64,000 nucleotides of DNA, taken from contig OY970368.1 of the NCBI GenBank assembly GCA_963718615.1, forward strand, positions 4,992,001-5,056,000, read 5' to 3'. Below, piece after piece: positions 19,701 to 53,199 of the stretch. Position 1 is the stretch's first letter, and the number at the start of each line of letters is the position of its first letter. The stretch comes from an uncultured cyanobacterium. GTDB taxonomy: Bacteria; Cyanobacteriota; Cyanobacteriia; PCC-9006; JAAUQQ01. The notes beneath the pieces are model-generated. The model did no database searches. It saw only the letters and a program-made list of their open reading frames with translations, and was not told the DNA's origin. The position numbers and the translations under genes were made by a program.

Positions 19701-19992
19701 GAACTTAACGCGGGCTAATCATGTGTTTCATTTCGATCGCTGGTGGAATCCGGCGGTGGAAAACCAGGCCACGGACCGAGCGTTTCGCATTGGCCAAACC
19801 CGTAATGTGCAGGTGCATAAGTTTGTCTGTAGCGGCACGTTGGAGGAGCGAATTCACGACATGATTGAAAGCAAAAAGGCACTGGCGGAGCAGGTGGTCG
19901 GAACGGGTGAGGATTGGCTGACGGAGATGGATACGGATGCGCTGCGGAATTTGCTTTTGCTCGATCGAAATAGCGTCATTGAGGATGCCTAA
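16717..19992 (+). CDS. SNF2-family helicase/ATPase
   Basis: LADDMGLGKT, LDEAQNIKN, LTGTPVEN, GGVGLNL, QATDRAFRIGQ. Confidence 0.95.
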   Translation: MAILHGSWTAIGQFLLWGEAWRTVEPVSLPDLREPETKATIPKQPLALSLKDLEPVLAELLPQLDRKTWTAADWAIALPTPAAPTKGRGRKKTEAPPSALLPQHSASDLEDPLPPLYPWRVSGYCLSPAEAIALLECLPLGLPQTENAWVGGDLRFWSHIARWSMDLMARSKFFPGLDALPSDPQHPNTPTPQHPNTPSHHKDKDKDTDTDTDEPEAPEAEEDLDTPPPTRWLTRWLPLLDSRIDRDRFVRFTQQMPSSCRCYWPESEGYGVPLLGNSSDLLRDFLGRMLDVQIKPAIHGALPKIEPEVQSWLKALGSDQAELDSAVGDRLQEVLQRWSLPLQTQLQQYRTCLTLTPPSSKQTPWHLSYSLQAEDRADFQVDAATIWHHPVEQLSYQGRLIPNPQETLLEGLGRALRLYPKLEPSLEGAAPTGCELTPPEAYEFIKAIAWRLQDNGLSVVLPESLANPEAIANRLGLKISAELPKRTTSGVGLNSLLRFKWELSIGGQTLTKAEFEQLAKQEIPLVEINGEWVELRSSDIKAAREFFASRQDQPNLSLEDALRISTGDAQTISKLPVVNFESSGALQELVTTLTGNQPVEAIAAPASFKGQLRPYQERGVGWLSFLQQWGLGACLADDMGLGKTVQMIALLLHLKEQQTLTAPILLICPTSVLGNWEREVHRFGPSLKVRVHHGPDRPQGTALAKLMEKTDLLVTSYALVQRDLKSLKAIEWLGLVLDEAQNIKNADAKQSKAVRELEADFRIALTGTPVENRLSELWSIMDFLNPGYLGPQNFFRRRFAMPIERYGDTDSLKTLRSLVQPFILRRLKTDRSIIQDLPEKQEMAVFCGLTQEQADLYQHLVDSTLETIESATGIQRRGLILALLTKLKQVCNHPALFDGKQTTKSSFAARSAKVQRLDAMLEEALVEGDRVLIFTQFAEWGKLLQNHLERQFGEVLFLYGSTTKAKREEMVDRFQKDPQGPRILLLSLKAGGVGLNLTRANHVFHFDRWWNPAVENQATDRAFRIGQTRNVQVHKFVCSGTLEERIHDMIESKKALAEQVVGTGEDWLTEMDTDALRNLLLLDRNSVIEDA
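17266..17355 (+). repeat. short tandem repeats inside the SNF2 gene
   Basis: 5x CCCCAACA (17266-17305) followed by AAAGAT/ACAGAC hexamer runs. Confidence 0.9.
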
Positions 19993-20029
19993 ACTTCTTG
20001 CCTAGGAGCATCGGCCTGTGAAGATGCGA

Positions 20030-20656
20030 TCATCCACCCGCCCTCAACACTTGTTCAGCCGTCAATTTCAGTCCTGAGAAGGTTGGAGAGACGATAGTTT
20101 GGTTGCCTCGAAATTGCTGAATTTCATACTCTCCACCCTCTAATGTACAAATAGAAAGCGTAGGTTGTTTGGGTTTTCCAATATGTCGAATTCCTCCCAA
20201 TCCTGCGTAGTCTGCAATCCAGTATTCGGGAATACCTAAAGCTGCATAGTCTTCGACTTTGCGAGCATAATCGTTTTGCCAGTTGCGACTCACGACTTCT
20301 GCAACCCATTTAATCGAACGACCCAGCGTCAAGATCGACTGATCAGACCAAAGCAGTTCTTGGGTCAGTTCATCTCGATTGATAACGGCGACGTCAGGAC
20401 GAAATGCTGTCATCGTGCTGTTAGAAGGGCGTAAGAGTCCTCGCTGAAGAACAAACCAAGGTAGGCCAGCACAGTCGATTTGTACACAGATCTTTGTGGT
20501 GATGAAGGCTACGACTTCTTCATGAAAACCGGTTGGTTCCAAGTCGAATACTTCTCCATCAATGAGTTCATAGCGGTTATTATCACCATAACGGGTGATA
20601 AACTCGTCGAAGCTGAGTGGCCTCTGTTGCAGGGGTTGGTCGATCGCAAGGGTCAT
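20030..20656 (-). CDS. Uma2 family (PD-(D/E)xK) putative endonuclease
   Basis: RYELIDGE, RPDVAV, VAEVVS, KVEDYAALGIPEYWIAD. Confidence 0.92.
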   Translation of the reverse strand: MTLAIDQPLQQRPLSFDEFITRYGDNNRYELIDGEVFDLEPTGFHEEVVAFITTKICVQIDCAGLPWFVLQRGLLRPSNSTMTAFRPDVAVINRDELTQELLWSDQSILTLGRSIKWVAEVVSRNWQNDYARKVEDYAALGIPEYWIADYAGLGGIRHIGKPKQPTLSICTLEGGEYEIQQFRGNQTIVSPTFSGLKLTAEQVLRAGG

Positions 20657-20780: not shown

Positions 20781-21644
20781 TCAGCGACTGCTCTCAGCTG
20801 CACCGTCAAAGTAAATCTCATCCGGTGTTTTGTAATCCAACGACTGATGCAATCTCAACTGATTATACCAGCTAAACCATTTCTTCACCTCCTGATTTAA
20901 GTGATTCCCATCCTCAAAACTCTTCAGATAAATCAGCTCGTACTTCAGCGATCGCCACAGCCTTTCAATGAAGATGTTGTCATGACACCTTCCCCGTCCA
21001 TCCATGCTCACCTGGGCTCCGGCTGTTCTCAACCTCTCGGTAAACACCTTCGCCGTGAACTGAGACCCCTGATCTGAATTGAAGATATCAGGACATCCAT
21101 ATTCCTCCAACGCTTCCTCCAATGCATCCAAACAGAACTGCACATCCATCGTGTTCGAGATTCGCCAGCTCAGCACCTTACGGCTGTACCAGTCCATAAT
21201 CGCCACCAGATAGAAATGCCCCTTCAGCACCGGCAGATAGGTGATGTCCGTGCTCCAGACCTGGTTTACCTTATCAATCGCCACACCCCTCAGCAGATAG
21301 GGATATATCTTGTGCTCCGGGTTTGCCACAGTCAGCTTCGGCTTCGGATACAGCGTTTGTAGACCCAGCTTTCGCATCAACCGCTGCACTCGCTTGCGAT
21401 TCACATCATGACCCTCTCTCTTCAACTGAGCCGTCATCCGACGAGAGCCATAGAACGGCATCTCCAGATACAGCTCATCCAAGCGACGCAGCAGTTCTAG
21501 CTCAGAGTCACTCACTGCTTTGGCACGGTAGTACAAGCTCGAACGGCTGATGCCCAGTAGCTGACATTGACGCACCAGGCTCAACTCCTCGTGCTCTCGC
21601 TCTACCAGGGCTTTTCGCTGCTCAACCCCAGTTTGGCTGAGCAC
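20781..21644 (-). CDS. IS3 OrfB (DDE transposase), probably expressed as an OrfAB fusion
   Basis: WSTDITY, NSDQGSQF, DNIFIERLWRSLKYE. Confidence 0.95.
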   Translation of the reverse strand: MLSQTGVEQRKALVEREHEELSLVRQCQLLGISRSSLYYRAKAVSDSELELLRRLDELYLEMPFYGSRRMTAQLKREGHDVNRKRVQRLMRKLGLQTLYPKPKLTVANPEHKIYPYLLRGVAIDKVNQVWSTDITYLPVLKGHFYLVAIMDWYSRKVLSWRISNTMDVQFCLDALEEALEEYGCPDIFNSDQGSQFTAKVFTERLRTAGAQVSMDGRGRCHDNIFIERLWRSLKYELIYLKSFEDGNHLNQEVKKWFSWYNQLRLHQSLDYKTPDEIYFDGAAESSR

Positions 21645-21925
21645 TCCGCTAAAAAATCCCGTTCCACCTTCAGCTTGCCGATTTGCCGATACAGCTCGTT
21701 GATTTCTGCCTGTTTATTCGCTTCCTCCTTTCCTCTATCAGATGTCTGGCCTGAATCAAAGACGCTGCTTGCCCCTTCCAAGAGCTGCCTCTTCCACTGA
21801 TGGATCAGCGTTGGATGCACATTGTGTTGGCTCGCCAGTTCCGGCACCGTCTTTGCCCCTTGCAAGGCTTCCAAGGCGATTCTCGATTTGAACTGGGCGC
21901 TGTACTGTCGGCGTTTCTTGCTCAT
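21602..21925 (-). CDS. IS3 OrfA (HTH)
   Basis: RRQYSAQFK...HPTLIHQWK...LKVERDFL; overlaps orfB in the -1 frame. Confidence 0.93.
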   Translation of the reverse strand: MSKKRRQYSAQFKSRIALEALQGAKTVPELASQHNVHPTLIHQWKRQLLEGASSVFDSGQTSDRGKEEANKQAEINELYRQIGKLKVERDFLAECSAKLGLSSEKPW

Positions 21926-22240: not shown

Positions 22241-22329
22241 ACATAACGTTGCCCATCACCCGCCGTAAATAACCTTCGAACTACAATAGATGACTTCTTT
22301 GCGGTCGGTGTGCATGGTCGTTGTTAGAC
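22241..22329 (-). other. integron attC site (locus A, distal)
   Basis: On minus strand: R'' GTCTAAC, left arm CCATgCACaCCGaCCG pairing with right arm CGGCGGGTGATGG, R' GTTATGT; 89 bp. Confidence 0.8.
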
Positions 22330-22387
22330 GGCTTGCAGATGAGGTCTCTCAAGCGGCGAGTTGATGGTTGGACGAGTAATCTGCAAT

Positions 22388-24013
22388 TCATGGCAATAGC
22401 GACAGTCCCAGCTCTTTCAGGAACTCATTGTGCTGTGCCGTTGCCGTTTGAATCGTGCCCTCGATTTCCATCAGCTCGGCATGAATTGCCGTCAAATCAA
22501 TCTCCTCTTCGGGGAGCGCAGTGCTGATATAGCGGGAAATGTTCAGGTTGAAGTCGTTTTTTTCAATCTCCTTCATCTCGACGCGGCGGGAGTAGCGCGG
22601 CTCTTCTTTGCGAAATTGGTAGGTTTCGATGATTTGGGTGATGTGTTCGGGCTTGAGCTGGTTTTGGCGTTTGCCTTTCTCGAACTGTTCGGCGGCGTTG
22701 ATGAAGAGCAGGTCGTCTGGCTTCTTGCAGCGTTTGAGCACGAGAATGCAGACGGGGATGCCGGTGGAGTAGAACAGGTTGGCGGGCAGGCCGATGATGG
22801 TGTCGATGTGGCCGTCTTTGAGCAGTTTGGTGCGGATGCGTTCTTCGGCACCGCCTCGGAAGAGTACGCCGTGGGGCAGGATGATGGCCATGACGCCTTC
22901 GTCTTTGAGGAAGTGGAAGCCGTGTAGGAGGAAGGCGAAGTCGGCGGCGGATTTGGGGGCGAGGCCGTGGTTTTTGAAGCGCACGTCGTCGCCCAGGGCT
23001 GGGGTGGGGGTCCAGCGGTAGCTGAAGGGTGGGTTGGCGACGATCGCATCGAAGGCGGGCTGCTTGGCGGGGTTGAGTTCGCGCAGAATCTCCCAGTCGT
23101 TGGTCAGAGTGTCGCCGTGGTAGATCTCGAACTCGCTGTCTTTGACGCCATGCAGCAGCATGTTCATGCGGGCGAGGTTGTAGGTGGTGATGTTTTTTTC
23201 TTGGCCGTAGATTTTGCCGATGGTGCCGCCTGCGTGCTTGAGGCGTTTGCGCACGTTGAGCAGCAGGGAGCCGGAGCCGCAGGCGAAGTCTAGTACGCTT
23301 TCGAGGCGTTGCTTTGATCCGGTTTTGGGTTCTTGGCTGTCGAGGGTGACGATCGCGGAGAGGATGTCGGAAATCTGTTGTGGGGTGTAGAATTCGCCTG
23401 CTTTTTTGCCGGAACCGGCGGCGAACTGGCCGATCAGGTATTCGTAGGCATTGCCCAGGGCATCAATGTCGGTGGAGAATTCGTTTAGTCCTTCGGCGAT
23501 TTTTTGGATGATGGTGCAGAGTTTGGCGTTGCGATCGGCGTAGGTTTTACCCAGTTTGTCTGAGGCGAGATTGATTTCGGAGAAGAGTCCCTGGAAGGTG
23601 CTTTCAAAGGATTCTTCTTCGATGTATTTGAATCCCGTCTGCAAGGTGTTGAGCAGTTCGTCGTTTTGGGTGCGGGCCAGGTTGGCGATGCTGTTCCAGA
23701 GGTGCGACGGCTGGATGACGTAGTGCGTTTTGCGGCGCATTTGTTTTTCAAATGCGGCGATGTCGTCTGGGTTATTGGCATACCAGAGGGCTAGCGGGAC
23801 TGGGTGGGTGTCGTCGTTGGGGTCGGGATAATCGCGTCCTAGTTCTTTTTTTGCGGCTGTCTCGTAGTTGTCGGAGAGGTAGCGGAGGAAAAGGAAGGAG
23901 AGCATGTAGTCGCGGAAGTCGTCCGCGTTCATGGCTCCGCGCAGTTGATCAGCGATGCCCCAGAGAATACTGCCCAGTTGTTTTTGCTTGGTGTCGTTCA
24001 TGGGGTTGCTCAT
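22388..24013 (-). CDS. hsdM: type I restriction-modification methyltransferase subunit
   Basis: LWGIADQLRG, GEFYTP, DFACGSGSLL, NPPF, PHGVLFRG. Confidence 0.97.
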   Translation of the reverse strand: MSNPMNDTKQKQLGSILWGIADQLRGAMNADDFRDYMLSFLFLRYLSDNYETAAKKELGRDYPDPNDDTHPVPLALWYANNPDDIAAFEKQMRRKTHYVIQPSHLWNSIANLARTQNDELLNTLQTGFKYIEEESFESTFQGLFSEINLASDKLGKTYADRNAKLCTIIQKIAEGLNEFSTDIDALGNAYEYLIGQFAAGSGKKAGEFYTPQQISDILSAIVTLDSQEPKTGSKQRLESVLDFACGSGSLLLNVRKRLKHAGGTIGKIYGQEKNITTYNLARMNMLLHGVKDSEFEIYHGDTLTNDWEILRELNPAKQPAFDAIVANPPFSYRWTPTPALGDDVRFKNHGLAPKSAADFAFLLHGFHFLKDEGVMAIILPHGVLFRGGAEERIRTKLLKDGHIDTIIGLPANLFYSTGIPVCILVLKRCKKPDDLLFINAAEQFEKGKRQNQLKPEHITQIIETYQFRKEEPRYSRRVEMKEIEKNDFNLNISRYISTALPEEEIDLTAIHAELMEIEGTIQTATAQHNEFLKELGLSLLP

Positions 24014-25212
24014 GGGGTTGGGGCGGGTGCTGCGGAAGGCGATGCAGCGGGTGCAGGCGCGGGTGTGGCAGCTGGTGGATTTTCGACTATCTCCGGCAGG
24101 GCGAATTGGAATGTCGTTACAAAGTCTGTAAGTAGGCGTCGGAACAGGTCTTTGTTGTCGTCGCCCATTTCGGTGGGTTCGTGGATGGCGTATTTGCCGT
24201 GGCTCAGGAGGTTGAGCGCGCGGTTGTAGAGCGCTCGATCGTCCTCATTATTTAGGGATTTGAGGCAAAAAGAGATGTCTGGGTGGCCAAAAAAGGCGGC
24301 GGTTTTTTCCATGATGCTCCGCAGGGCGTTGAAATGGAATGTGTAGAGCGTGCCGCTGGTGGCGGCCAGTTGCAGTTCGGCAAGGCTGGCGACGTGATGA
24401 AAGAACGGTGTGTCGTCGGTGGCGCGTAGAGTATAGGCACCGTCGCCATTCGGACGGTGGAGGAAGTAGCGTTTGTGAGTGACCTTTGGCTCCCCTGCTT
24501 TGGGTCTGCCAATCTCGTTGCACATCACGTTGAAGAAAAGGGCGTGGTGTGAGGAGAAGACGATTTTGATGGGTGCGGGATCGCCATTTGGGTCTTGGCG
24601 GCTGGCGGCGCGGCGCAGCAGTTGGGCGAGGTCGCAGGCGACAGCGATCGCGTTGTTGTCATCGAGGGAGGAGATGGGGTCGTCGATGTAGAGGAATTTG
24701 TTCGATTGGTAGGAGATGTGGCCGTCGAGCATGCGCTCGCAGATGGCCATGAAGAGGCACCAGATGAAGATGTTCTGCTCGCCACGGGAGATTTTGATGT
24801 TTTCTGCTTCTCCTTTGCGGAAGGAGACTTTCCATTCGGTGTAGTCGATGTCGAAGTCAAAATCTGCGTAGCGATCGAGGTAACCCGCGATTGTCTCGTC
24901 GAGGGCGAGGTCTTTCAGGCCGTTGAAGAAGGTGGAGTCGGGATTGAGCTGGAGATGGCGGGCAGCGTCTCCATCGAGATCGTTTTCCCAGGTGAACAGG
25001 TCTTCGGTGAAAGCGTTGAAGTAGAGGGTGTCGGCGGTGCCGTTGTTTCGGCGTTTGCCTGCGTCTTTGAACTCCATGGAGAGGCGCGTTTTGCCTGTGC
25101 GGTTGTAGGCGTAGAGGAGGATGAGCTGCGTCGGCTTTGTAGGATTGTTCAAGTCGTCGCGCAGGCGGGTGACTAAGGTGCGCAAGCTCTGATAGGTGCG
25201 AATGTTGCTCAT
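24010..25212 (-). CDS. prrC: PrrC-like anticodon nuclease (ABC ATPase + HEPN-type RNase)
   Basis: YAYNRTGKT Walker A variant, ISRGEQN signature, YIDDPISSLD Walker B/D-loop, SSHH, C-terminal FNALRSIMEK and RALNLLSH; ~400 aa, embedded in an hsd operon. Confidence 0.82.
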   Translation of the reverse strand: MSNIRTYQSLRTLVTRLRDDLNNPTKPTQLILLYAYNRTGKTRLSMEFKDAGKRRNNGTADTLYFNAFTEDLFTWENDLDGDAARHLQLNPDSTFFNGLKDLALDETIAGYLDRYADFDFDIDYTEWKVSFRKGEAENIKISRGEQNIFIWCLFMAICERMLDGHISYQSNKFLYIDDPISSLDDNNAIAVACDLAQLLRRAASRQDPNGDPAPIKIVFSSHHALFFNVMCNEIGRPKAGEPKVTHKRYFLHRPNGDGAYTLRATDDTPFFHHVASLAELQLAATSGTLYTFHFNALRSIMEKTAAFFGHPDISFCLKSLNNEDDRALYNRALNLLSHGKYAIHEPTEMGDDNKDLFRRLLTDFVTTFQFALPEIVENPPAATPAPAPAASPSAAPAPTP

Positions 25213-26603
25213 GCTTTAACCTCCTCTGGGGATGGGAAAAGCTGCTGCATCAGGCCGCGCTTGTGGGTTTTGAGGGCTTCGAGCTTTTGGGTGGCGGCGG
25301 CGATCAGGTCGTCTAGGGTGGTGAGGCAGGTGGCGATGCGTTGTTGTTCGATGACATCTTTTGGCAACTGCACCCTCAACTTCGCTTGCTCAGTAATCCC
25401 AATGTAGGCTCTGGTTCCTCCTCCCGATACTTCCAGAAGGTTTGACTGAAAAGTCTCGGAGACGAATAGCTGAGCCAGGAACTCACTCGAAAGCTTCTTC
25501 GGGTTTTTCACGCGGTAATAAGTTACTTGGGGAGTCAGCATCAGATAGGGCGTATTGATTTTCCTCACGACGGCCACTTCGCCAACGGTTCCTTTGTGCG
25601 AAAGAAGGACGTCACCTTCCCTTGCGAATCCTTTTTGCAATGTGTCAGCTAGCTCTCTGCTAATGAAATGGCAATGGTCGATGTCGATCAGCCCTCCATT
25701 AAGGTCACTCGCCATAATGAACGGAATCCCTTTGGGGACGTAATCCGACGACTTTGGATGAATATTTCCATGATTTCCATCTTTCGGCGGGAACAAGCAG
25801 TTTGCTTCGACTAGTCCCCCGACGGAACTGAGAACCCACTCCCCCTTCCCACGAAACTCTGGAAACCGCAGGCGGGGTTGGGTTTCGCCTTCGCGGGGGA
25901 AAAGCTGCTGCATCAGCCCTTTTTTATGGGTCTTGAGCGCGTCCAGTTTGCGGGCTTGGGCGGCGATCGCCTCATCCACCGAACTCAGGCACTCCGCGAT
26001 TTTTTGTTGTTCGGGGAAGATTGCTGGAAGGGGAATGATGAACGACCTGATTTGCTCAAAATTTAGCCCTTGCCGATTGCCGCCAGCTTGAAAACTGTCA
26101 ATCTGTTTCTGCCCATCGTGGGAAATGAGATATTGATTCAGGAAATAGGGGCTCAGTTCGTCAGGTTTGGCGCGAATAATGCAAACGTGCTGATTGACAT
26201 TGCCTCCCTCAATTTTTAAATTAGCCACCGCGCTTCTTCCAATTGAAGCGCCAGTAATATTGAGAAGAACATCAAAAGCTTCGATTTGAGTTGATCGAAA
26301 TGAGTTGTGCGTTTCTTCGTCGATGAAGGCCACATCGTCCAAAAGCAATTCTCCCCAACCAATATTCTGACTGCGAACGAAAGGGCGACCCGAAGATTTG
26401 TAATTCTTTTCGCCGCCTGTTGGAGTGATTCCGCTTCCAACCTTTATGGTTTTTGAACCAAGCTTTTCCCCTGCCCACCCCTCCGCTTCCCGAAACTCCG
26501 GAAACCGCAGGCGGGGAATCAAGCATTGAGAATTTTGAACAGAGAAAGACTCATCCTGCCTCCCTTTCTCACTGCTCACTTCCAACTTCTCCCTTTTTTT
26601 CAT
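25209..26603 (-). CDS. hsdS: type I R-M specificity subunit
   Basis: Two TRDs each preceded by PRLRFPEFR and followed by EQQ(K/R)IA...LKTHK(K/R)GLMQQLFP. Confidence 0.96.
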   Translation of the reverse strand: MKKREKLEVSSEKGRQDESFSVQNSQCLIPRLRFPEFREAEGWAGEKLGSKTIKVGSGITPTGGEKNYKSSGRPFVRSQNIGWGELLLDDVAFIDEETHNSFRSTQIEAFDVLLNITGASIGRSAVANLKIEGGNVNQHVCIIRAKPDELSPYFLNQYLISHDGQKQIDSFQAGGNRQGLNFEQIRSFIIPLPAIFPEQQKIAECLSSVDEAIAAQARKLDALKTHKKGLMQQLFPREGETQPRLRFPEFRGKGEWVLSSVGGLVEANCLFPPKDGNHGNIHPKSSDYVPKGIPFIMASDLNGGLIDIDHCHFISRELADTLQKGFAREGDVLLSHKGTVGEVAVVRKINTPYLMLTPQVTYYRVKNPKKLSSEFLAQLFVSETFQSNLLEVSGGGTRAYIGITEQAKLRVQLPKDVIEQQRIATCLTTLDDLIAAATQKLEALKTHKRGLMQQLFPSPEEVKA

Positions 26604-27694
26604 GGTTCCCCCTCCGTTTCGTCAGCAAAGTCACCGGACAATTCAGCCTCAATTTCCTCAATGGTAGGGAGGACAGTTTGGAGGCGATCGGGAAGGGACT
26701 GCACCAGTTGGTATTCAGCCACACCGATCGGTTTGTTGCTATTCCGGAGTGCATACTCCGCTACCACAGAATTTTTACTTTTGCACAAGAGGATGCCGAT
26801 CGTCGGCTGATCGTCGGGATGTTTCACCTGGGCATCCACCGCACTGAGGTAAAAGCCTAGTTGTCCCGTGTGCTCTGGCTTGAAGGAGCCAGCCTTAAGC
26901 TCGACCACGACATAGCAGCGCAGCTTGAGGTGATAAAAGAGGAGATCCATGAAAAACTCGTCACCGCCAACATCCAGCAGCACTTGTCGTCCGACGAAGG
27001 CAAATCCCGCCCCCAGTTCCAGCAAAAACTGAGTAACATGCTTGATTAGAGCGTTTTCGATTTCCCGTTCGTTGGCCTCCTTTCCCAGCACGAGGAAATC
27101 GAAGCGATACGGATCTTTCAGGGATTCACGGGCTAGATCAGACTGGGGAGTGGGCAAAGTCCGACTAAAATTGGTGACGGCTGCACCGCTACGATCGCGC
27201 AGGCGGGACTCGATGTGCATAACGAGAACGTTCCGCGACCAGCCATGCTCCACGGACTGTGCCGCATACCACAGCCGCTCCTGAGGCGTTTTGAGCTTAT
27301 CCAGCAAAGCGATGTGGTGATACCACGGCAATTGTGCAAGACCCACTTGCACAATTTGGCCCGTTGCGATTTGGTCAGTAACCTGCTGACCCATCATTTG
27401 CCCATCTGGCCAAGCCCTGGCAAAGGCACGCATATATTTGAGATTGCGAGGAGAAAAGCCCTTCATTTCAGGGAACGCCGTGCGGAGATCGTGGGAGAGC
27501 CGATCGATCACCTTCGCGCCCCAGCCCTGTGCTGCCTGCCGATCGAGGATATCCTTACCGATTTCCCAGTAAAGCATCACGAGTTCGTGATTTACTGCCA
27601 TCGTGGCCCGCTGCTGCGCTGCATGGATACGCAGTTTCAAGTCAGCGAGCCATGCTTGGTAATCGGGGGGAATGATGTCGGATTTACGATTCAT
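26600..27694 (-). CDS. DUF1016/YhcG family PD-(D/E)xK protein
   Basis: LYWEIG, GFSPRNLKYMR, KDPYRFDFL, FLLELGAGFAFVGRQ, DLLFYHLKLRCYVVVELK. Confidence 0.92.
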   Translation of the reverse strand: MNRKSDIIPPDYQAWLADLKLRIHAAQQRATMAVNHELVMLYWEIGKDILDRQAAQGWGAKVIDRLSHDLRTAFPEMKGFSPRNLKYMRAFARAWPDGQMMGQQVTDQIATGQIVQVGLAQLPWYHHIALLDKLKTPQERLWYAAQSVEHGWSRNVLVMHIESRLRDRSGAAVTNFSRTLPTPQSDLARESLKDPYRFDFLVLGKEANEREIENALIKHVTQFLLELGAGFAFVGRQVLLDVGGDEFFMDLLFYHLKLRCYVVVELKAGSFKPEHTGQLGFYLSAVDAQVKHPDDQPTIGILLCKSKNSVVAEYALRNSNKPIGVAEYQLVQSLPDRLQTVLPTIEEIEAELSGDFADETEGEP

Positions 27695-30600
27695 ATGCGC
27701 TGAGTCCTGAAATATCGCGGCCAGCGGCCCGTTTAGTCAGCAGCGGCACCAAGTCATCCATCAGCGCCAGCTCAGCCTGAGTGCGTGCCTTCCAGCCCAG
27801 ATCCAGCGGAGCCATCAAGTCGCCAAGCTGCTCGCCATCAAAAATCATCCGCTCCAAAATGCCATCCACAAAAGCTTGCAGCGCCGCCGCAGCAAGGCCG
27901 TGCTTACCCGCGATCGCCGCCAACTCCCGCCCATCCTTCTCCGCCTTAAAACGGGCATAGCCCTCACGGATCGCCGTTTCGCTCAACCCCTCCCCCGCCT
28001 TCAGCGTGGCAATGTAAGCCGCAATATCCTCCCGCTCATCCATAAACTTAGCATCGGCACCGATCAAGCCGATCAGCGCCTCCCGGCTCATCTTCGCCTT
28101 GCCCGAACCTGGAGCCGAGAACTTAGCAATCAGCCCCATGATGTAGTCGTAATCAATCACCGCCGAGGCAAACAGCACAAACTCAAAATCGAGCTGATCC
28201 ACATTGTCTGGCACCGGCTGATCGGCACCCTTGCCCTTACCCTGCTGCGCCTTGAGCCGCTGAGCCGTCTCCAAATACGCCCCCTTAAAGCCCCGATGCC
28301 GCTCCTCTGGCAGCACCTGCTCGATCGCGGCTTTATTGTCCTCGGTGAGGTCGGTGTATTGGTCAAGCTGCGTCTTCAGCCGCTGAACTTCCTTGTATTG
28401 GGCGCAGAAAGCAGCGCGGGCCGCATCACCCTTCAGGTTCGGCACAGCCTCCGGTGCGGTGGTCAGCCCCTGGGATTTCATAAAGCTGTCGAGCTGCTGC
28501 ACAGCCTCCTCCAGTTTTTGGATGACGATGGGAGCCTTATCCACTAGCCAAATTTCCCGCGCCTGCTCACTGGTCTTTTCCCCAGAGAAGAGGGCGATCG
28601 CCGCATCCACAGCCTCCTGCTGCTGGCGAAAGTCGAGGATATTGCCGTAGGGCTTGGTGCCATTGAGCACGCGATTCGTGCGGGAAAACGCCTGGATCAA
28701 ACCGTGGTACTTGAGATTCTTATCCACATAGAGCGTATTCAGGTACTTGGAATCAAAACCCGTGAGCAGCATATCCACCACGATCGTGATGTCGATCTTC
28801 TGCGCCGCAGGGAAGTCGGCATTGGGCCACTGCTGATCCTTGATGCGCTTCTGCACATCCTGATAGTAAAGGTCAAACTCGCTGAGCTTGTGATTGCTAC
28901 CGTAGCGGCTGTTGTAGTCCGCCAGGATGGCCTTGAGCGCGGCTTTTTTACCCTCAGGGTCTTCTTCGTTATCGGCCTTCTCCTGGGGCAGATCTTCCTG
29001 GATCTGGCGCACGTCCTGGTTACCCTCGGCGGGCGGCGAAAACACACAGGCGATATTCAGCGGCCTGAACTCGGTGCCGTCGGCCTGCTTCTCGGCCTGC
29101 TTCTCGGCCTGCATCGTCTTAAACAGGCCGTAGTACTCGATCGCGTCATTAATCGAGGCAGTGGCCAGGATGGCATTGAACCGACGGCCAGCGGTGGCCG
29201 CATCGTGCTTGGCGAGAATGGCCTCGATCACGGCGCGCTTGGCGATCGCTTCACCGGGCTTCGGCAGCTTCTTGCCCTTTTCTTCCTTGGGCTTGAAGTA
29301 GTCCACATGGAAGCGGAGCACGTTCCCGTCTTCGATCGCGTGGGTGATGGTGTAAGCATGGAGCGGCTTCTGGAAGAGATCTTCCGTGGTGCGCATCGAT
29401 GCCTGGGTGCCCTCGATCTGTTTCAGGGTGGCATTGGCCTCAAAGATCGGCGTACCCGTGAACCCAAAGAGCTGAGCCTTGGGAAAAAATGCTTTGATGG
29501 CCTTGTGATTCTCGCCGAACTGCGATCGGTGGCATTCATCAAAGATCAAGACAATGCGTTTGTCCTTCAGCGCCTCAAGCTGATCCTTATAGGTGGCTTG
29601 GCCGCTTTTGCGGCGCTGCTTGTTACGCTTGCTGTTTTCATCCAGCGCCAGGCCCAGCTTCTGGATGGTGGTGACGATCACCTTGTCCGCATAGTCCTCC
29701 GAGAGCAGTCGGCGCACGAGGGCGGCGGTGTTGGTGTTTTCCTCCACGCAGCCCGCTTGGAACTTGTTAAATTCCTCGCGGGTCTGGCGATCGAGATCCT
29801 TTCGATCCACCACGAACAGGCATTTGTGGATATGGTCATTGAGCTTGAGCAGGGTAGAGGCTTTGAAGGACGTCAGCGTCTTACCGCTGCCGGTGGTGTG
29901 CCAGATATAGCCGTTCCCCGCATCGTCCTCAATACACTGCACGATCCGCTGCACAGCATAGACCTGGTAGGGCCGCATGATCATCAGCTTTTGCTCGCTC
30001 TGGATCAGGACCATGTAGCGGCTGAGGGTCTTGCCCAGGGCGCACTTTTGCAAGAAGCGATCGGCGAAGTCGTTCAGGTGGGTGATCTTCTGGTTCGCCT
30101 CGTCCGCGAACTCATAGATGGGCAGGAACCGCTCCTCGGCATTGAAGGCGAAGTGGCGGGTGTTGTTGTTGGCAAAGTAATAGGTGCGATCGCGATTGCT
30201 GACAATAAAAAGCTGGAGAAAACAAAGCAGGGTCTTGGTGTAACCGTTGCCCGCGTCGTTTTTATATTCGACAATCTGCTCCATCGCCCGACGAGGGCTG
30301 ATGCCGAGGGTCTTCAGCTCGATCTGCACAGCGGGCACACCATTGATCAAAATCAGCACATCGTAGCGGTGGTGGCTGTTGTCGGTATTGATGCGCAGTT
30401 GGTTAACGACCTCAAAGGTGTTTTTGCACCAGTCTTTGAGGTTTACTAGGGTGTAGTTGAGTGGGGTGCCATCGTCACGGGTGAAGGCATTGATTTCGCG
30501 CAGGGTCTTAGCAGCGGTGAAAACGTCTGGGCTGACGATTTCGTCGAGCAGGCGGGCAAACTCGGAATCAGTGAGACGGCAACGGTTGAGCGCCTCGAAT

Positions 30601-30767
30601 TTCTCGCGGAAGTTCTTTTCTAGGGAGGCGCGATCGGTGATGTCTTGGCGGTATTCGTATTTGAGTTTTTGGAGCGTGCCGATAAAGCCGTATTCGATGT
30701 CGTCCTCTCGGAGAACCGAGGGCGCGGCCTGGTGTGACGGGTAGTTGATCTCAGAGTCAGTGGGCAT
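27684..30767 (-). CDS. hsdR: type I R-M restriction subunit
   Basis: DVLILINGVPAVQIELK, HTTGSGKT, DECHRS, FTGTP, MLLTGFD, QAFSRTNR; ATG at 30767 preferred over the ORF-track start. Confidence 0.96.
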   Translation of the reverse strand: MPTDSEINYPSHQAAPSVLREDDIEYGFIGTLQKLKYEYRQDITDRASLEKNFREKFEALNRCRLTDSEFARLLDEIVSPDVFTAAKTLREINAFTRDDGTPLNYTLVNLKDWCKNTFEVVNQLRINTDNSHHRYDVLILINGVPAVQIELKTLGISPRRAMEQIVEYKNDAGNGYTKTLLCFLQLFIVSNRDRTYYFANNNTRHFAFNAEERFLPIYEFADEANQKITHLNDFADRFLQKCALGKTLSRYMVLIQSEQKLMIMRPYQVYAVQRIVQCIEDDAGNGYIWHTTGSGKTLTSFKASTLLKLNDHIHKCLFVVDRKDLDRQTREEFNKFQAGCVEENTNTAALVRRLLSEDYADKVIVTTIQKLGLALDENSKRNKQRRKSGQATYKDQLEALKDKRIVLIFDECHRSQFGENHKAIKAFFPKAQLFGFTGTPIFEANATLKQIEGTQASMRTTEDLFQKPLHAYTITHAIEDGNVLRFHVDYFKPKEEKGKKLPKPGEAIAKRAVIEAILAKHDAATAGRRFNAILATASINDAIEYYGLFKTMQAEKQAEKQADGTEFRPLNIACVFSPPAEGNQDVRQIQEDLPQEKADNEEDPEGKKAALKAILADYNSRYGSNHKLSEFDLYYQDVQKRIKDQQWPNADFPAAQKIDITIVVDMLLTGFDSKYLNTLYVDKNLKYHGLIQAFSRTNRVLNGTKPYGNILDFRQQQEAVDAAIALFSGEKTSEQAREIWLVDKAPIVIQKLEEAVQQLDSFMKSQGLTTAPEAVPNLKGDAARAAFCAQYKEVQRLKTQLDQYTDLTEDNKAAIEQVLPEERHRGFKGAYLETAQRLKAQQGKGKGADQPVPDNVDQLDFEFVLFASAVIDYDYIMGLIAKFSAPGSGKAKMSREALIGLIGADAKFMDEREDIAAYIATLKAGEGLSETAIREGYARFKAEKDGRELAAIAGKHGLAAAALQAFVDGILERMIFDGEQLGDLMAPLDLGWKARTQAELALMDDLVPLLTKRAAGRDISGLSAYES

Positions 30768-30802
30768 AGTGGTCAGTTGCGAAAAAGAGCCTTGAACGGG
30801 AT

Positions 30803-30885
30803 GCGGAATTGAGCGATCGCATCCCACAGTCGCTTTTCGAGCGAAGCGGTGTCGGCATTGTTTTCGGTGGGGGCGTCCAGTCCAT
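30803..30885 (-). pseudogene. frameshifted 5' fragment of a second, different hsdM-like gene
   Basis: ATG at 30885 gives MDW, then after a 1-nt shift APTENNADTASLEKRLWDAIAQFR, resembling the HsdM N-terminal LEKRLWDAADQ(F/L)R motif. Confidence 0.6.
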
Positions 30886-30913
30886 TAGTTCTCAGCTCGT
30901 TCTCTGTATATCG

Positions 30914-31000
30914 GTCTAACGGTTGCGGTCAGCGGTTGCCGATACTTTTGCATCCTACCCAAGCAGCTTTGGTCAATCCGCTGCACCGCAATTGTTATAC
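30914..31000 (-). other. integron attC site (locus A, proximal)
   Basis: On minus strand: R'' GTATAAC, left arm TTGCGGTgCAGCGGaTTG pairing with CAACCGCTGACCGCAA, R' GTTAGAC; 87 bp, 24 bp after the stop of the 552-aa gene. Confidence 0.88.
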
Positions 31001-31024
31001 AGCGTATCTATTTGGTTCGTTATG

Positions 31025-32683
31025 CTACCTTTTTCTTTTAGATTGTTGAAAGAGTAAGCCAACTGGGGATGCTTTCATCGTTTTTGCCTCTTTTTGAATC
31101 TCCTGAAACTTATTAGGTAATTCCTTCAATTTAGGTACATCAAGCAATTGATCAGCAGCAAATGCTAATAGACCAAAGGTTGGTGCACCGCTAAGAGCCG
31201 CTGCAACCTCAATAGTTCCAATTGCAATCCAACTTCCCACATCAACACCCGCAAACTTCCAAGTTTTATTACGAAGCTTTGTCATATTTTGCTGGTGTTG
31301 CTCAAAAGCACCACGAATGTTATCAACCACCTGATCAGTAGTCTGAAAGAAATTGGTTGGCTCAGATGCTGCAATATCAGATACTCCTCTGCCCAAAATT
31401 TCTCGGAGTTCTTCAGTAGCACCCTGTTGTCTCATTTCAACTAAAGCTTCTGGTGGGATATTGCCAAGCCATTGCATCTCACCTCTAGCAGCAGACTGAA
31501 GCCCTCGCACAACGTGTAGAGGAGTTAAGTCAGTGTTTGATACACGATCTGCATCGTATTCAAGTTTCCAATTAAGATATCTCCAAGATGTTTCAGCATC
31601 TATGAGTGGGGTTCCCCTAAGTTCTAGGCTCCGCCTCAATAAATCGTTGGCTTGCGACATTCGACCAATGAAATTTGGAAGAATAATATCACCCGCACGT
31701 TGTGGATTAAAGACTCTACCTTCTCCTCGCATATACTCGCGAATTTGTTCATCTAGAGTTTGTGTAGCTTCGGTATCAAAAAGAAGAAGATCAGGATTGG
31801 CAAGTGCAGCAACAAGATCACTAGGTTGCTCAAACTGTTTTGCATAATCTTGTAGCTCGTCAATTGACTCAAAGTTTCTTCCAAACATTGTAGAAACGTG
31901 CTTCAAACAATCACCCTCTGCCATAGAGTGAATAAACTCTGAATAACCTTCCTCTAAATCAAGCTTGTCAGGAACGATCGCAATGATTGGTGTATCAACT
32001 TCTGCAAGTGCTAAAGAGCGGTAACGTAATATTTGTAAACCAAACCGAAGCACTTCATATACTAATCTTTTAGGTTCCCAGTGAGGTACTAACCGTGATA
32101 TTCGCAGTAGAGGATCAGGAAGAATAATTGTATCAACATATAGACCGCAGCTAGAGGCAATGCTATGCCCTCCAGCAGGAAAGAGGGAGCCTCCATAAAC
32201 TGCTTTAATTCTATTTTGATCCTCGCTATGAATCCAAGCAGGATCTGCTATGTTTTTCCAAAACTCCTGAATTTGTTCAAGAAACTCAGGGAGATGTTGA
32301 GCAGCTTCCTGTACCTGATTAGCATCTTGTATATAGGCTCCAGCAATTTGATGAGGTTCAGCATTACGCTCTTGCATAACCTGAAATAGATCACCAAATT
32401 GGTGATCTATTGCTCTGAAAAAGGCTTCTTGTACTTGTTGTGGCGAAATAGCCTCTTTCCACTCTTCCCGATCTTGAAAGTGAGCCATCATAAGAGCCAT
32501 AGACCGCACTGTCCCATCTACAGTATCCGGATCTACTAGCCCATCTGGTGCAAGGCGTACCCTTTCTAAACTTTCCAAAACATCATCGGCAAGGTGTTCT
32601 GCAAGATGAATTTTGCCTACCTGAGCCTTCTCTCGAAGAATCATAATTCGCCGATGAAGCTCTTCTCTGTCAGTATCAGACAT
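31025..32683 (-). CDS. hypothetical cassette protein, 552 aa, candidate defence effector
   Basis: AT-richer than flanks, no exact HIP1 site noticed, bounded by GTTATAC (32837) and attC; hydrophobic pair near the C-terminus. Confidence 0.8.
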   Translation of the reverse strand: MSDTDREELHRRIMILREKAQVGKIHLAEHLADDVLESLERVRLAPDGLVDPDTVDGTVRSMALMMAHFQDREEWKEAISPQQVQEAFFRAIDHQFGDLFQVMQERNAEPHQIAGAYIQDANQVQEAAQHLPEFLEQIQEFWKNIADPAWIHSEDQNRIKAVYGGSLFPAGGHSIASSCGLYVDTIILPDPLLRISRLVPHWEPKRLVYEVLRFGLQILRYRSLALAEVDTPIIAIVPDKLDLEEGYSEFIHSMAEGDCLKHVSTMFGRNFESIDELQDYAKQFEQPSDLVAALANPDLLLFDTEATQTLDEQIREYMRGEGRVFNPQRAGDIILPNFIGRMSQANDLLRRSLELRGTPLIDAETSWRYLNWKLEYDADRVSNTDLTPLHVVRGLQSAARGEMQWLGNIPPEALVEMRQQGATEELREILGRGVSDIAASEPTNFFQTTDQVVDNIRGAFEQHQQNMTKLRNKTWKFAGVDVGSWIAIGTIEVAAALSGAPTFGLLAFAADQLLDVPKLKELPNKFQEIQKEAKTMKASPVGLLFQQSKRKR

Positions 32684-32830
32684 AGTTGAGGGTACCCCTA
32701 ACTCTACATATAGTCAATTCTAATCAATTCACTTGTGATTTGACCTAAATGTAGCGGGACTTCGTTGAAGCCTGAACATTATGCCCTAGCAGGAAATCTT
32801 CACAGGCTGTCTTCAGCAGAGAACGAAGCT

Positions 32831-32870
32831 GTATAACAATCTGATTAGACTGAATGACCTCCACCTAATC
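32831..32870 (-). other. attI-like recombination site (locus A)
   Basis: Minus strand GATTAGGTGGAGGTCATTCAGTCTAATCAGATTG|TTATAC; GTTATAC is the exact complement of the next attC's R''; 29/40 identical to 52918-52957. Confidence 0.7.
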
Positions 32871-32891
32871 CCCAGACTACAGGGTCTTATA

Positions 32892-34721
32892 CCCGGATTT
32901 CTCACCAGGGCGGATAGAGAGTATCAGGCTTGCCCGAAATGAGATGAGCAGTCTGTTGACTCGAGCAATAGAGGATGCCTGAGGCATCTTTCAGGCTGTC
33001 TATGCTGTAAAGGTAGTCATTGTGCTCTAGATATGGGGCTTCAGGCAGATTTTGAGCAGGTCAAAGCAAGGGTGTGTAATCTCACCCTTGGAGAGTCGTT
33101 GAATTAAAGTCGGAGCGAAAGGCTAGAGTTCTACTCATCGGTCTATCCTGGCCTAGGGAGTCGTCTGCGCAACTGTTGTGCTGCCGCTTCAAAGAGGGTT
33201 TGTATGGGCGAAGCGAAAGTGAATGCGACGAGAATGCGCCTGACAGAGATGCGAACCTGTGCGCCAAGCTTGAGCAGCTTGCGTCGAATGGTGCCCAGAG
33301 TCGCATCAGCGAGTTCAGTTTTGGCGAGTGCCTTGAGGCGCAGGGCCTGCATCAAGACATAGGCGAAGGATGAAAACCAGAGTCTGAGCTGATTGCTTTC
33401 AAAGTCATGGGTGGAGGTGCGGTCGCTGAAGAGGTCAAGCTGATGCTCCTTGATGCGATTTTCCATCTCTCCTCGCGGACAGTAATAATCGCGGTGAAGG
33501 TGAGCGGGATGGGCCTGCTGTGCTGTCAAAGAGGTGACAACGAAATGGCGACGTGGGCCATTGCCATCGTAGGTGAGCTTGCAAATGACGCGACGCTCAC
33601 AGCTCCAGGATTTAAGCGTGGCATAGCTCAAGGACTGATGCCAAACCTGGGGCGGAACCAAGCGGTTGAGTTCAGCCTCTAGTTCACTTGCACTCTGCTC
33701 TAACAGAGGTTCTAAGGTGGCAGCAACCGTTTGGCGCTGGGCCTCATAAACGGCTTTGGCTCGCTGTTCTAACCCCCAAGTCAATTGGCGCAAGCGCTCA
33801 TTGCTGCTGTGGGCAAAAACAAAGTCCACCTGGGCTTCACCTTCACACCACAGCATGATGTCATCTCGGCTGTAAGCACTATCGCCGCGCACCAGAATCT
33901 TCACCTTCGGCCAATGACCTCGAATCTGAGCCACGATGCGTTGGAGTTCTTCTAACGCTCCCGCTGCGGGGTCCACATTGGCCGGTCGCAGTTTTGCACT
34001 CAACAAATGGCGACCACTGAAGATGAGCAACGGGGTGTAGCAGTCATGGCGGTAATACCCATTGAACGCTGAACCTTCCTGGGTGCCATGGGTGGGGTCA
34101 TCGGTGACATCCATGTCCAGGATGATTTGTTTCGGTTCACCTTCGAGTTGTTCGATGAATAGCTCCACCAAGAGCGCCTCGATGGCAGCCGGGTCCAGGC
34201 TCAGTTTCACGTAGCGCGAATCTGACAAGTCGCGGGGGACATGCATCGCTTGCTCCAATCGGTTGAGGGTGCTCTTGCCCGCTAACGGTGCACAGCGCGG
34301 ATGCTGGCTTTCTAACTGACCCAGAACTACCCCAAATAATCGCTCATGCCGAAGGTCGTCATGGTCATTCACGTCCTCGTAGCCTTGCACCAATCCATAA
34401 AGCCGTTGCCCGAGCAGCGTTTTCAATTCATGTTGCACCCGGCTGCCATCGCGGTGATCCGTAAAGCACTCGGACAGCCGCTCACTGATTCGATATAGCT
34501 GGTCGATTTCTCGAATTAGCAGCAGCCCTCCATCACTGCTGAGCTCACCACCGCTAAAGTTCGCTACTATCTTGCGTTGATTCAGGCGTCCAAACTCGTA
34601 GCTTGGCAAGTTACACTCTGTTTGGGTCGGGGCCATCTTTGCAAACCGCTGAATGTCTTGTGGTTATTACATTCTCGCTGGTTGGTGACCCCGATCCCTC
34701 GGCACTGGTGAGATATCCGGG
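32892..34721 (-). mobile_element. IS1380-family insertion sequence, 1830 bp
   Basis: Terminal IRs CCCGGATTTCTCACCAG / CCCGGATATCTCACCAG (16/17), 5-bp target duplication TTATA. Confidence 0.93.
33143..34636 (-). CDS. IS1380 DDE transposase
   Basis: FSGGELSSDGGLLL, GYEDVNDHDDLR, LDMDVTDDPTHG, VRGDSAY, RGEMENRIKE. Confidence 0.95.
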   Translation of the reverse strand: MAPTQTECNLPSYEFGRLNQRKIVANFSGGELSSDGGLLLIREIDQLYRISERLSECFTDHRDGSRVQHELKTLLGQRLYGLVQGYEDVNDHDDLRHERLFGVVLGQLESQHPRCAPLAGKSTLNRLEQAMHVPRDLSDSRYVKLSLDPAAIEALLVELFIEQLEGEPKQIILDMDVTDDPTHGTQEGSAFNGYYRHDCYTPLLIFSGRHLLSAKLRPANVDPAAGALEELQRIVAQIRGHWPKVKILVRGDSAYSRDDIMLWCEGEAQVDFVFAHSSNERLRQLTWGLEQRAKAVYEAQRQTVAATLEPLLEQSASELEAELNRLVPPQVWHQSLSYATLKSWSCERRVICKLTYDGNGPRRHFVVTSLTAQQAHPAHLHRDYYCPRGEMENRIKEHQLDLFSDRTSTHDFESNQLRLWFSSFAYVLMQALRLKALAKTELADATLGTIRRKLLKLGAQVRISVRRILVAFTFASPIQTLFEAAAQQLRRRLPRPG

Positions 34722-35190
34722 TTATACAGAGCTGCTTCAGTCTATTCCCCAAATTAGGAATATTAGACCGAACCAGAGTCGGTATAATCCCCAAAAACGA
34801 ACAATTAGGCGGAATGTCATTCCGCCTAATCCCGGATTTAGCGTCTTAGCCCGAATCTCATTCCTCATAATATCCACAATCCCCCGGATAAGACGATCAC
34901 CAGGCTTTTCCTGTCAAAAATCTTTGCATAGCATTTCGCCTAATCCCCCAAATCCCGCCTTAGACCGAAGCACCGAACATCCGCCCCCTTCAACAACACC
35001 TCCAGTTCAACCATGAAACCGACCAATTAGAGGCATGCAGTTCGGGGTCTGGGCGTTTGGCAAAGAAACAATCAGAGAACCGAAGCAGCCTGATTGCCCT
35101 GGTACCCAGCAGCAGCGATCGCAACCTTCCCACCTTCCCTGGGAAAACTAGAATCATCCGCTCAGGCTCATCCCGGTACCTGCTAGTCCC

Positions 35191-52944: not shown

Positions 52945-52957
52945 AATATTGTTAAAT
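52918..52957 (+). other. attI-like recombination site (locus B)
   Basis: GACTAGATGGACTAGATTCAGTCCAATAATATTG|TTAAAT; 29/40 identical to the locus A site; lies between the intI stub and the first attC. Confidence 0.7.
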
Positions 52958-53157: not shown

Positions 53158-53199
53158 AGAAAACCTATAATTTATAAATATGATTCATAGACTAACTTT

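Follow-up and report, generated by a model that had tools for sequence, protein, structure and literature searches.

An 8,673-bp type I restriction–modification and PrrC operon as a probable single integron cassette in a cyanobacterial genome

Introduction

The prr locus of Escherichia coli consists of the type I restriction–modification (R-M) system EcoprrI with an embedded prrC gene for an anticodon nuclease. Here, we analyse a related arrangement in a 64,000-nt window (G000:C1:4992001-5056000) of a 6.10-Mb single-contig cyanobacterial genome, G000; coordinates below are those of the window unless given as genome positions. Five minus-strand genes, encoding a type I R-M system, a DUF1016/YhcG nuclease and a predicted PrrC, lie between two co-oriented attC sites, and we regard the whole 8,673-bp block as probably one genuine integron gene cassette holding an entire defence operon. 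As in the E. coli locus, prrC sits inside a type I hsd operon beside hsdS and hsdM; unlike in that locus, the order is R-YhcG-S-PrrC-M, an extra DUF1016 nuclease is present, the operon is bounded by attC sites, and PrrC is assigned by prediction.

The closest described systems are cassettes of chromosomal integrons. In the available text of Cury et al. (2016; PMC4889954), IntegronFinder joins attC sites lying <4 kb apart, double the length of the largest cassette known (~2 kb); the two sites described here would not be joined under this default because they are 8.6 kb apart. The available text of a preprint by Darracq et al. (2024; 10.1101/2024.07.02.601686) deals with the chromosomal integrons of Vibrio and counts 783 cassette-borne defence systems. 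These systems are described as mostly compact, of a size that 'never exceeds 2 components', with small type II and IV restriction systems favoured, while long loci such as CRISPR-Cas or BREX are absent, which the authors ascribe to constraints on cassette genesis and recombination. Our literature searches turned up neither a type I R-M cassette nor one of exceptional size, with the proviso that the supplementary tables of Darracq et al. and Cury et al. could list larger ones.

Measured against the cassettes of sedentary chromosomal integrons and of clusters of attC sites lacking integron integrases (CALINs), as set out in the same text of Cury et al., the block shows the R'', L'', L' and R' boxes, an unpaired spacer and extrahelical bases in the '' arm. 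Its attC directly follows the coding region on the 3' side and shares its orientation, its ends are of the G/TT type (the slash marks the boundary), its R'' box complements its first bases, no promoter was detected, and it occurs in different arrays. It departs from such cassettes in its size of 8,673 bp and its five genes, and in belonging to an array with an attI-type site but no intI. With the Vibrio defence cassettes, as far as they are described in the available text of Darracq et al., it shares a defence system as integron cargo; unlike them, it combines a three-subunit type I R-M system and two accessory defence genes in one cassette, in a cyanobacterium.

Gene content and boundaries of the block

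The boundaries can be read directly in the sequence and are identical in a contig, G003:C200, from another genus of the same family. The 5' boundary motif GTTAGAC lies at 30920-30914 on the minus strand; at the other end, the hsdM stop codon (TGA, 22390-22388) is followed after 58 nt by the R'' box GTCTAAC (22329-22323), and the downstream R' box GTTATGT lies at 22247-22241. The positions of GTTAGAC and GTCTAAC and the 58-nt spacing agree in full with those of a first-pass annotation made from the sequence alone, and Pfam, TIGRFAM and PADLOC models likewise bear out its description of a five-gene type I R-M and PrrC operon (Table 1).

The gene order is hsdR, DUF1016/YhcG, hsdS, prrC and hsdM, without gaps, so that all three type I subunits, HsdR, HsdS and HsdM, are encoded within the block. 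Start and stop codons overlap at four of the four junctions (4-11 nt; ATGA-type, with 11 nt at hsdR/yhcG), and for this reason we treat the block as one translationally coupled operon. The listed start of hsdR is a GTG at 30827, with an in-frame ATG at 30821. The YhcG gene also matches the PADLOC candidate defence family PDC-S02 (E 3.1e-163); HsdS contains two Methylase_S target-recognition stretches (Pfam); and the PADLOC PrrC model spans residues 7-374 of the product of the gene between hsdS and hsdM, in which a Walker A-like motif, AYNRTGKT, is present. A Pfam scan found no insertion sequence (IS) within the block.

Between the 5' boundary and hsdR, no sigma-70-like promoter was found (0 vs 0.4 expected), which fits, weakly, a promoterless cassette. 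The G+C content of the block is 55.1% compared with 52.4% genome-wide, and it holds seven HIP1 sites (0.81 per kb vs 1.44 per kb in the genome). The first-pass annotation had taken the HIP1 sites as a sign of long residence. This was not borne out: the HIP1 site at the 5' end of the block is shared by its close relatives, which are cyanobacterial as well. HIP1 therefore points to a cyanobacterial origin, not necessarily to a long stay in this genome, and is a poor guide to residence time. At 8,673 bp and five genes, the block lies outside the typical cassette range of one gene and up to ~2 kb. Small single-gene size is the usual, not a defining, property of cassettes, and is the point at which this one departs from those known.

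The flanking attC sites

We trained a covariance model, R1, on 12 further attC sites of G000, leaving out both flanking sites, and searched the window with it, filters off; R1 is biased towards this cyanobacterial attC family. Both flanking sites are full-length matches on the gene strand, at 74.5 bits (downstream) and 59.6 bits (upstream), so that the sites proposed in the first-pass annotation are genuine attC sites, far beyond chance. The upstream site has little primary-sequence likeness to the G000 family, and its score is therefore largely structural. Among 13 matches in the window at E<=10, the best within the block (24504-24589(+), 17.4 bits, E 0.015) lies on the strand opposite to the genes and has no counterpart in the G003 block. 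A structure-only scan found no attC candidate between 22330 and 30913; this scanner required >=5/7 R''/R' complementarity, so it missed the downstream attC and serves as a secondary check for internal sites. At gathering thresholds, Rfam returned no attC-type family in the window.

By BLAST and nhmmer, the downstream attC belongs to a dispersed repeat family; this family has 22 sites in G000, most of them isolated. Its members share an R'' box ending in AAC, followed by a 3x3 unpaired spacer and a stem enclosing a variable loop; the stem carries three extra bases in its 5' arm and ends at an R' box, GTTRRRY, where similarity stops. In an RNAalifold consensus of 13 sites, compensatory changes occur in seven of the 15 predicted stem pairs. 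The alignment of the downstream attC displays both the 3x3 unpaired spacer and the three bulged bases of the '' arm. Both flanking sites carry their bulged bases in the R''-L'' arm of the minus strand, which is the gene-sense one, a placement noted in the first-pass annotation and recovered by the alignments, R1 and the folds. The R' box GTTATGT differs from GTTRRRY at one position, a departure that is expected because a hybrid R' takes its last six bases from the next segment. As single-stranded DNA, the upstream attC folds at -18.8 kcal/mol (z -4.22), with none of 200 shuffles as stable.

Complementarity of cassette starts and attC sites

When a cassette is a circle, its R' is completed by its own first bases; the first six bases of a cassette should therefore complement its own R'' box. 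Counting the G, the large cassette (cassette 2; TTAGAC against GTCTAAC) and the adjacent cassette 1 (TTATAC against GTATAAC) are each complementary at 7/7 positions, as is a third cassette in the window carrying the open reading frame (ORF) ORF473, which starts with G/TTAGAC and whose attC starts with GTCTAAC. Two further pairs in G000 reach 7/7 (genome 4667339 to 4668886 and 1908715 to 1916858). Two testable consecutive pairs fail (427140 to 415660 and 3237114 to 3236178); the former encloses 11.5 kb of core-like genes, and the second site of the latter is a weak 31-bit match. The background rate of 7/7 complementarity is 20/462 (4.3%) among ordered pairs of different G000 sites. The caution in the first-pass annotation that GTTAGAC is a common core was fair, as it is the R' box of four of the 22 sites; even so, the complementarity it had pointed out extends to the neighbouring cassette, and its full occurrence in two adjacent cassettes is unlikely by chance.

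Five further pairs fall outside this test owing to displaced R'' boxes. At five of the 22 sites (genome 2245121-2245207, 3852927-3853014, 3845696-3845782, 1919945-1920031 and 1920967-1921052), CCCCCAT or CCCCATA takes the place of R'', with CTCCCCCGTCCCC before it. Two of the five adjoin IS110-family transposase genes (PF01548/PF02371; L207:636-1901 and L210:9842-11197), which suggests an IS that targets attC and that we liken to the IS1111-attC group. The G003 copy of the large cassette's attC also has CCCCAT at the same spot, with no IS there. Other long attC-to-attC intervals in G000 (5-12 kb) were considered as giant cassettes and rejected, as they hold IS (IS110, DDE_5, IS21-type) or core-like genes.

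The block in other genomes and metagenomes

In a DNA search of G000 and 60 relatives, 41 of the 61 genomes matched the query at least in part; many of these share attC parts only, which indicates that the attC family is widespread in the class. The most informative copy is that of G003:C200, where the block is 91-95% identical (hsdR 94.9%, prrC 91.1%, hsdM with attC 91.4%), whereas the other genes on this 25-kb contig are 67-78% identical to G000 counterparts that are scattered in G000. Homology starts exactly at GTTAGAC (L032:250, equal to window 30920) and ends at window 22244, within the GTTA of the attC, which scores 68.5 bits with R1. To the left stands an attI-type simple site rather than an attC (...GTCTAATAGATA/GTTAGAC); this flank, GTTAGGCAGAATCAATTCCGTCTAATAGATA/GTTAGAC, agrees with the terminal unit of G000's attI-type modules. 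To the right, the sequence departs from G000 directly after GTTA. The 249 nt that precede the G003 block gave no tblastn match to an intI start. An exact scan of species-representative genomes with the first 24 bases of the cassette found one contig outside G000, with the coordinates of G003:C200.

The interior of the G003 copy differs (L032 3487-8356): two short ORFs (94 and 210 aa) stand in place of the YhcG gene, hsdS is in three pieces, and an extra 156-aa ORF, also present in a third genus (G004), lies between prrC and hsdM. G003 and G004 are metagenome-assembled genomes, and the G003 contig has a coverage of ~4x. From these comparisons, the cargo of the cassette changes while its ends stay fixed.

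A metagenome contig, L047, shows 91.7% identity across window 30943-27683 and stops before the 3' boundary. There, a different attC-like hairpin ending in GTTAGGC abuts the block exactly, joined at G/TTAGGC; this site (L047:50-138) scores only 14.6 bits with R1 (E 0.015, filters off). The block is thus seen in three left contexts: an attC (G000), an attI-type site (G003) and another attC-like site (L047). Direct observation covers the sites and boundaries, the gene families, and the recurrence of the block in different surroundings. Because the right junction occurs in two unrelated places and the left one in a third context as well, we attribute these junctions to IntI-type recombination at the cassette's own ends. 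Bounded by attC sites, uninterrupted, carrying the circle signature and found with the same ends in new surroundings, the block has what operationally defines a cassette short of a recombination assay. The first-pass annotation had offered two options, a mobilisable five-gene cassette or an R-M locus bracketed by independent insertions, and had suggested looking for identical GTT boundaries in related genomes; G003:C200 has both and L047 the left one, and together with the complementarity they favour the former.

In four metagenome runs, whose short contigs come from related organisms (88-99% alike), none of the contigs covers both the operon and a boundary; nor was an excision joint seen, which is uninformative either way. 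Similarity breaks occur in these stromatolite and other metagenome contigs at 22244 (four contigs of run X3, with differing continuations) and at 30916 and 30950 (run X1), at crossover points or inside attC. Such breaks fit G/TT junctions and attC types of this kind joining many neighbours, not necessarily those of the R-M block. Run X2 contains G004-type flanks.

The array, attI-type modules and integrase supply

Read in gene sense, the array comprises an attI-type site split by an IS, G/TTATAC with cassette 1 and its attC, G/TTAGAC with cassette 2 and its attC, and a final G/TTATGT, beyond which ~240 nt lead to an IS3 element whose end is repeated elsewhere in G000. Upstream of ORF552, the cargo of cassette 1, the stretch ATTAGGTGGAGGTCATTCAGTCTAATCAGATT/GTTATAC is the end of a ~290-nt module of palindromic units of the form TTAGGCnGAA...TTCnGCCTAAT. 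With an nhmmer profile of three other G000 copies and the window copy, the attI-type homology is broken between 34705 and 32892, where the IS lies; the proximal part (genome 5024892-5024835(-)) aligns with copies at 2250k, 4665k and 4667k. Copies of the module occur at genome 2250415-2250661, 3538453-3538720, 4665500-4665789 and 4667054-4667339, and part-copies at 3132427, 785284, 5738218 and 6017357 and at window 52810-52953. At least six modules are dispersed round the chromosome with no integrase gene beside them, and several have an attC in the same orientation 1-5 kb downstream. Dispersed attI-plus-cassette modules depart, to our knowledge, from textbook arrangements.

In each full copy, similarity stops at a GTT, after which the sequences diverge. 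Arrays of similar palindromic units are also present between a GTT and the intact intI's start codon, and next to an intI remnant at 4713.8 kb. Because of this architecture and position, we read the modules as putative attI-type sites. Cassette insertion at secondary or non-classical genomic sites is known to yield isolated attC sites and could explain the small intI-less arrays scattered in G000; these arrays differ from such insertions in starting with a long multi-repeat attI-type module instead of a bare GTT in a gene.

The only integrase gene of G000 above the TIGR02249 cut-off lies at genome 948656-949594 (443.8 bits vs a cut-off of 265), in an ORF at 948608-949606, and its translation shows motifs that we take to be the catalytic motifs of tyrosine recombinases. 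The other four of five intI loci are broken (1907122, 3859666, 4646232 and 4712672/4713688). The window thus lacks the intI next to attI and array that marks a complete integron, and the array is CALIN-like, retaining an attI-type site.

Of the neighbouring cargo, ORF552 is weakly similar to Avs1c over its first 60-70 residues (27.6-29.3 bits, below the cut-off of 70) and may be an unfamiliar defence gene. The window also contains a second, plus-strand mini-array without intI, in which an attI-type part-module is followed by an ORF-less element with its own attC-like hairpin, ORF473 and an attC (Table 1). The ORF-less element recurs at 90-92% identity after the attI of the intact intI (948 kb) and after the module at 4665790.

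Points against a cassette and alternative explanations

Several observations weigh against the block being a cassette, or against its being a mobile one. As for the latter, the available text of Loot et al. (2017; PMC5371416) describes an excision frequency that drops with length over 60-3,060 bp for some attC pairs, and by extension excision of 8.7 kb may be very rare. The downstream attC folds into the expected bulged stem, though no more stably than shuffled sequences (bottom strand -9.4 kcal/mol, z -0.46; 63 of 200 shuffles at least as stable), and this weak hairpin is a real weakness for present-day recombination. TIGR02249 has no match in the window: the closest intI remnants lie at a distance of ~278 kb, and the intact gene at ~4 Mb. 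With regard to the comparative evidence, the right-hand boundary is known from two contexts only (G000 and G003), and R1, a family-biased model that may pass over other attC types and was run here with default filters, found a strong attC in just one of 160 related PrrC loci from metagenomes and from species-representative genomes other than G000; that locus, L128, shares its contig with the G003 copy (L032). Other cyanobacteria hold more distant operons with this gene order (69-78% identity), and these are not flanked by attC. Moreover, transfer of a shared array of attI and R-M block, followed by insertion of the ORF552 cassette at attI, could explain the difference between the left flanks of G000 and G003, in which case the R-M block need not have moved between them as a lone circle.

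The copy in G004 also counts on this side. This third genus carries the operon (hsdR and hsdM 93-94% identical) on two contigs with no attC on either side, so that the operon apparently can exist, and spread, outside cassette form. It lies at another locus: its flanks are orthologues of genome positions 3689490 onward and 3688916 and below, which are only 573 nt apart in G000, making G000 the empty site for the G004 insertion. The 5' edge in G004, GCTAGGCTGGCACAGGAAGAACGAG, aligns with GTTAGGCTGACACACGAAGAACGAG of L047, and its GCTAGGC looks like a vestigial R' box. The 11-mer ACAGCTAGGCT, which contains GCTAGGC, is repeated 192 nt after the G004 hsdM stop, forming a direct repeat around the operon (L034, G004:C296, ~3105-3115; L033, G004:C144, 2634-2644); on the left, the repeat overlaps the upstream core gene's stop codon, and the G000 site is uninterrupted (3688916-3689490). 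The G004 copy may be a decayed cassette at a secondary site or a pre-cassette state; the 192 nt after hsdM and the direct repeat may represent a decayed attC or reflect a different insertion mechanism. The first-pass annotation had held that relatives with the operon at this locus but without attC sites, or with different boundaries, would speak against a cassette; G004 has the operon without attC sites, but at a different locus and with what may be the remains of an R' box at its edge. The full cassette (G000, G003), the copy behind another attC (L047) and the attC-less copy (G004) could, more speculatively, be successive states of one unit.

A resident R-M locus might have been bracketed by chance, with unrelated cassettes or single attC sites landing on each side. 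The abundance of scattered single sites in G000 makes this conceivable, as do the pair 427140/415660, which encloses core-like genes and fails the complementarity test, and the attC-less operon of G004. It leaves the shared boundaries unexplained, however: homology with G003 starts and ends exactly at both G/TT points with both flanks different, L047 adds a third left flank at the same point, the attC 58 nt after hsdM is conserved with the block at ~91%, identity between the genera is 91-95% for the block against 67-78% for core genes, and the 7/7 match stands against the 20/462 background. We therefore regard chance bracketing as inadequate and very improbable. Even less credible, to our mind, is a fusion of separate hsdR, yhcG, hsdS, prrC and hsdM cassettes through loss of internal attC sites. 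The differing interiors of the copies, with other ORFs for the YhcG gene and the 156-aa insertion in G003, and the 17.4-bit internal match would suit it, but that match is on the wrong strand and absent from G003, and the 4-11-nt overlaps at all four junctions leave no room for attC remnants. The order hsdR ... hsdS-prrC-hsdM, moreover, recurs in many of 26 related loci (L047-L069, L127, L132, L156), which include contigs titled Verrucomicrobiota and Cyanobacteria. The operon exists widely outside integrons, R1 finds a strong attC in only one of the 160 scanned loci, and the collinear, nearly identical non-cassette operon of G004 also speaks against fusion.

A more serious contender, which we would still bet against, is that IntI integrated the cassette in the past and that excision has since been lost through excessive distance, the weak downstream hairpin and the lack of a nearby integrase, leaving a fixed defence island. 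The unstable downstream hairpin, the length dependence described in the available text of Loot et al., the IS-split attI-type site and the four broken intI loci all point that way. Against this, one intI is intact by score, both attC sites retain R'', R', the bulges and the unpaired spacer, and the copies in other genera, at 91-95% identity, imply that it moved recently. Such a fossil bears on present activity only and is compatible with the block being a cassette.

Genomic surroundings

The array lies between SNF2/Uma2 genes and a tetratricopeptide repeat (TPR) gene, and the surroundings at 16717-20656 and 37611-42713 resemble a defence island: they encode an SNF2 helicase with DUF3670, a Uma2 nuclease (PADLOC PDC-S03, E 2.4e-84) and a 1,700-aa caspase-STAND NTPase-WD40 protein. 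The HIP1 sites and a Cyano-1 RNA match, the only Rfam hit in the window, are consistent with a cyanobacterium.

Table 1. Features of the window, with strand and supporting matches
Feature	Position	Strand	Details
Cassette 2 (giant)	22247-30919	(-)	8,673 bp by the G/TT rule; from TT of GTTAGAC to G of GTTATGT
hsdR, type I restriction subunit	27684..30827	(-)	TIGR00348 380 bits (cut-off 284.55); PADLOC REase_I 1114 bits; Pfam
DUF1016/YhcG PD-(D/E)XK nuclease	26600..27694	(-)	PF06250 E 7.1e-64; PF17761 E 1.9e-41
hsdS, specificity subunit	25209..26603	(-)	PF01420, two stretches; PADLOC Specificity_I E 4.1e-97
prrC-type anticodon nuclease gene, 400 aa	24010..25212	(-)	PADLOC PrrC E 1.7e-131, 436.7 bits; PF13166 AAA_13
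hsdM, methyltransferase subunit	22388..24013	(-)	TIGR00497 392.6 bits (cut-off 242.75); PF02384 E 2.8e-103
Downstream attC, of cassette 2	22241-22329	(-)	R1 74.5 bits, E 8.7e-20; R'' GTCTAAC, R' GTTATGT
Upstream attC, of cassette 1	30914-31000	(-)	R1 59.6 bits, E 2.9e-15; R'' GTATAAC, R' GTTAGAC
Cassette 1	30920..32836	(-)	1,917 bp; carries ORF552; GC 42.5%, no HIP1 site
ORF552, cargo of cassette 1	31025-32683	(-)	no Pfam family
Putative attI-type simple site, proximal	32831..32892	(-)	...ATTAGGTGGAGGTCATTCAGTCTAATCAGATT/GTTATAC; R box GTTATAC at 32837-32831
IS transposase gene, DDE_Tnp_1_4	33143..34636	(-)	PF13701 E 6.9e-138; IS ~32893-34704, splits attI-type site
Putative attI-type site, distal part	34705..34959	(-)	nhmmer match at genome 5026959-5026705(-), E 2.2e-72
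IS3-family orfA/orfB, outside cassette	20781..21925	(-)	PF01527, PF00665, PF13276; just past last attC
Second mini-array without intI	52810-54739	(+)	attI-type part-module, ORF-less element, ORF473, attC
Putative attI-type part-module of second mini-array	52810-52953	(+)	
ORF-less element	52932-53155	(+)	~210 nt; own attC-like hairpin
ORF473	53200-54621	(+)	no Pfam family
attC of ORF473 cassette	54652-54739	(+)	R1 86.7 bits
Cyano-1 RNA	7144-7224	(+)	Rfam, 46 bits vs gathering score 41

Predicted mobility and function

That IntI excises and integrates the block, and that the block is mobile today and active in defence, are predictions from sequence. The cassette would have come recently from another cyanobacterium and been inserted at G/TT by an integron integrase through site-specific recombination, and the only intact integrase of G000, ~4 Mb away, could act in trans. 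On excision as an 8,673-bp circle, the circle junction would rebuild the downstream attC followed by TTAGAC, and the chromosome would be left with the deletion junction ...CGCAACCG/TTATGT..., which can also be written ...GACCGCAACCG/TTATGTCGCTC.

The functional scheme for R-M and PrrC follows general knowledge of EcoprrI and PrrC. An HsdM2S complex would methylate host DNA and HsdR would restrict unmodified phage DNA, with PrrC held latent on the R-M complex until a phage anti-restriction factor attacks that complex, whereupon it would cut the anticodon of the cell's own tRNA(Lys). The DUF1016 nuclease, although uncharacterised, often accompanies hsd operons. Restriction, the cognate methylase and a back-up would thereby move together, a two-layer defence as one unit, and this joint packaging would avoid post-segregational killing or self-restriction on transfer.

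Implications

At 8.7 kb, the cassette has about four times the upper size assumed for such units, indicating that the limit is not absolute. We tentatively raise the possibility, which we would not yet favour, that cyanobacterial integrons have no practical size limit and move multi-gene defence operons between genera from dispersed modules served by one integrase in trans, and that surveys miss such cassettes where attC sites lie >4 kb apart. A blind spot for defence cassettes beyond the 4-kb attC spacing is suggested in any case, and the block offers a substrate for testing how excision scales beyond 3 kb. The attC-less sister copy in G004 provides a rare comparison for the question of cassette origin; should the copies prove to be stages of the same unit, they could reveal how cassettes arise or are undone. 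Integrons would join the vehicles that move complete type I R-M and abortive-infection modules between bacteria.

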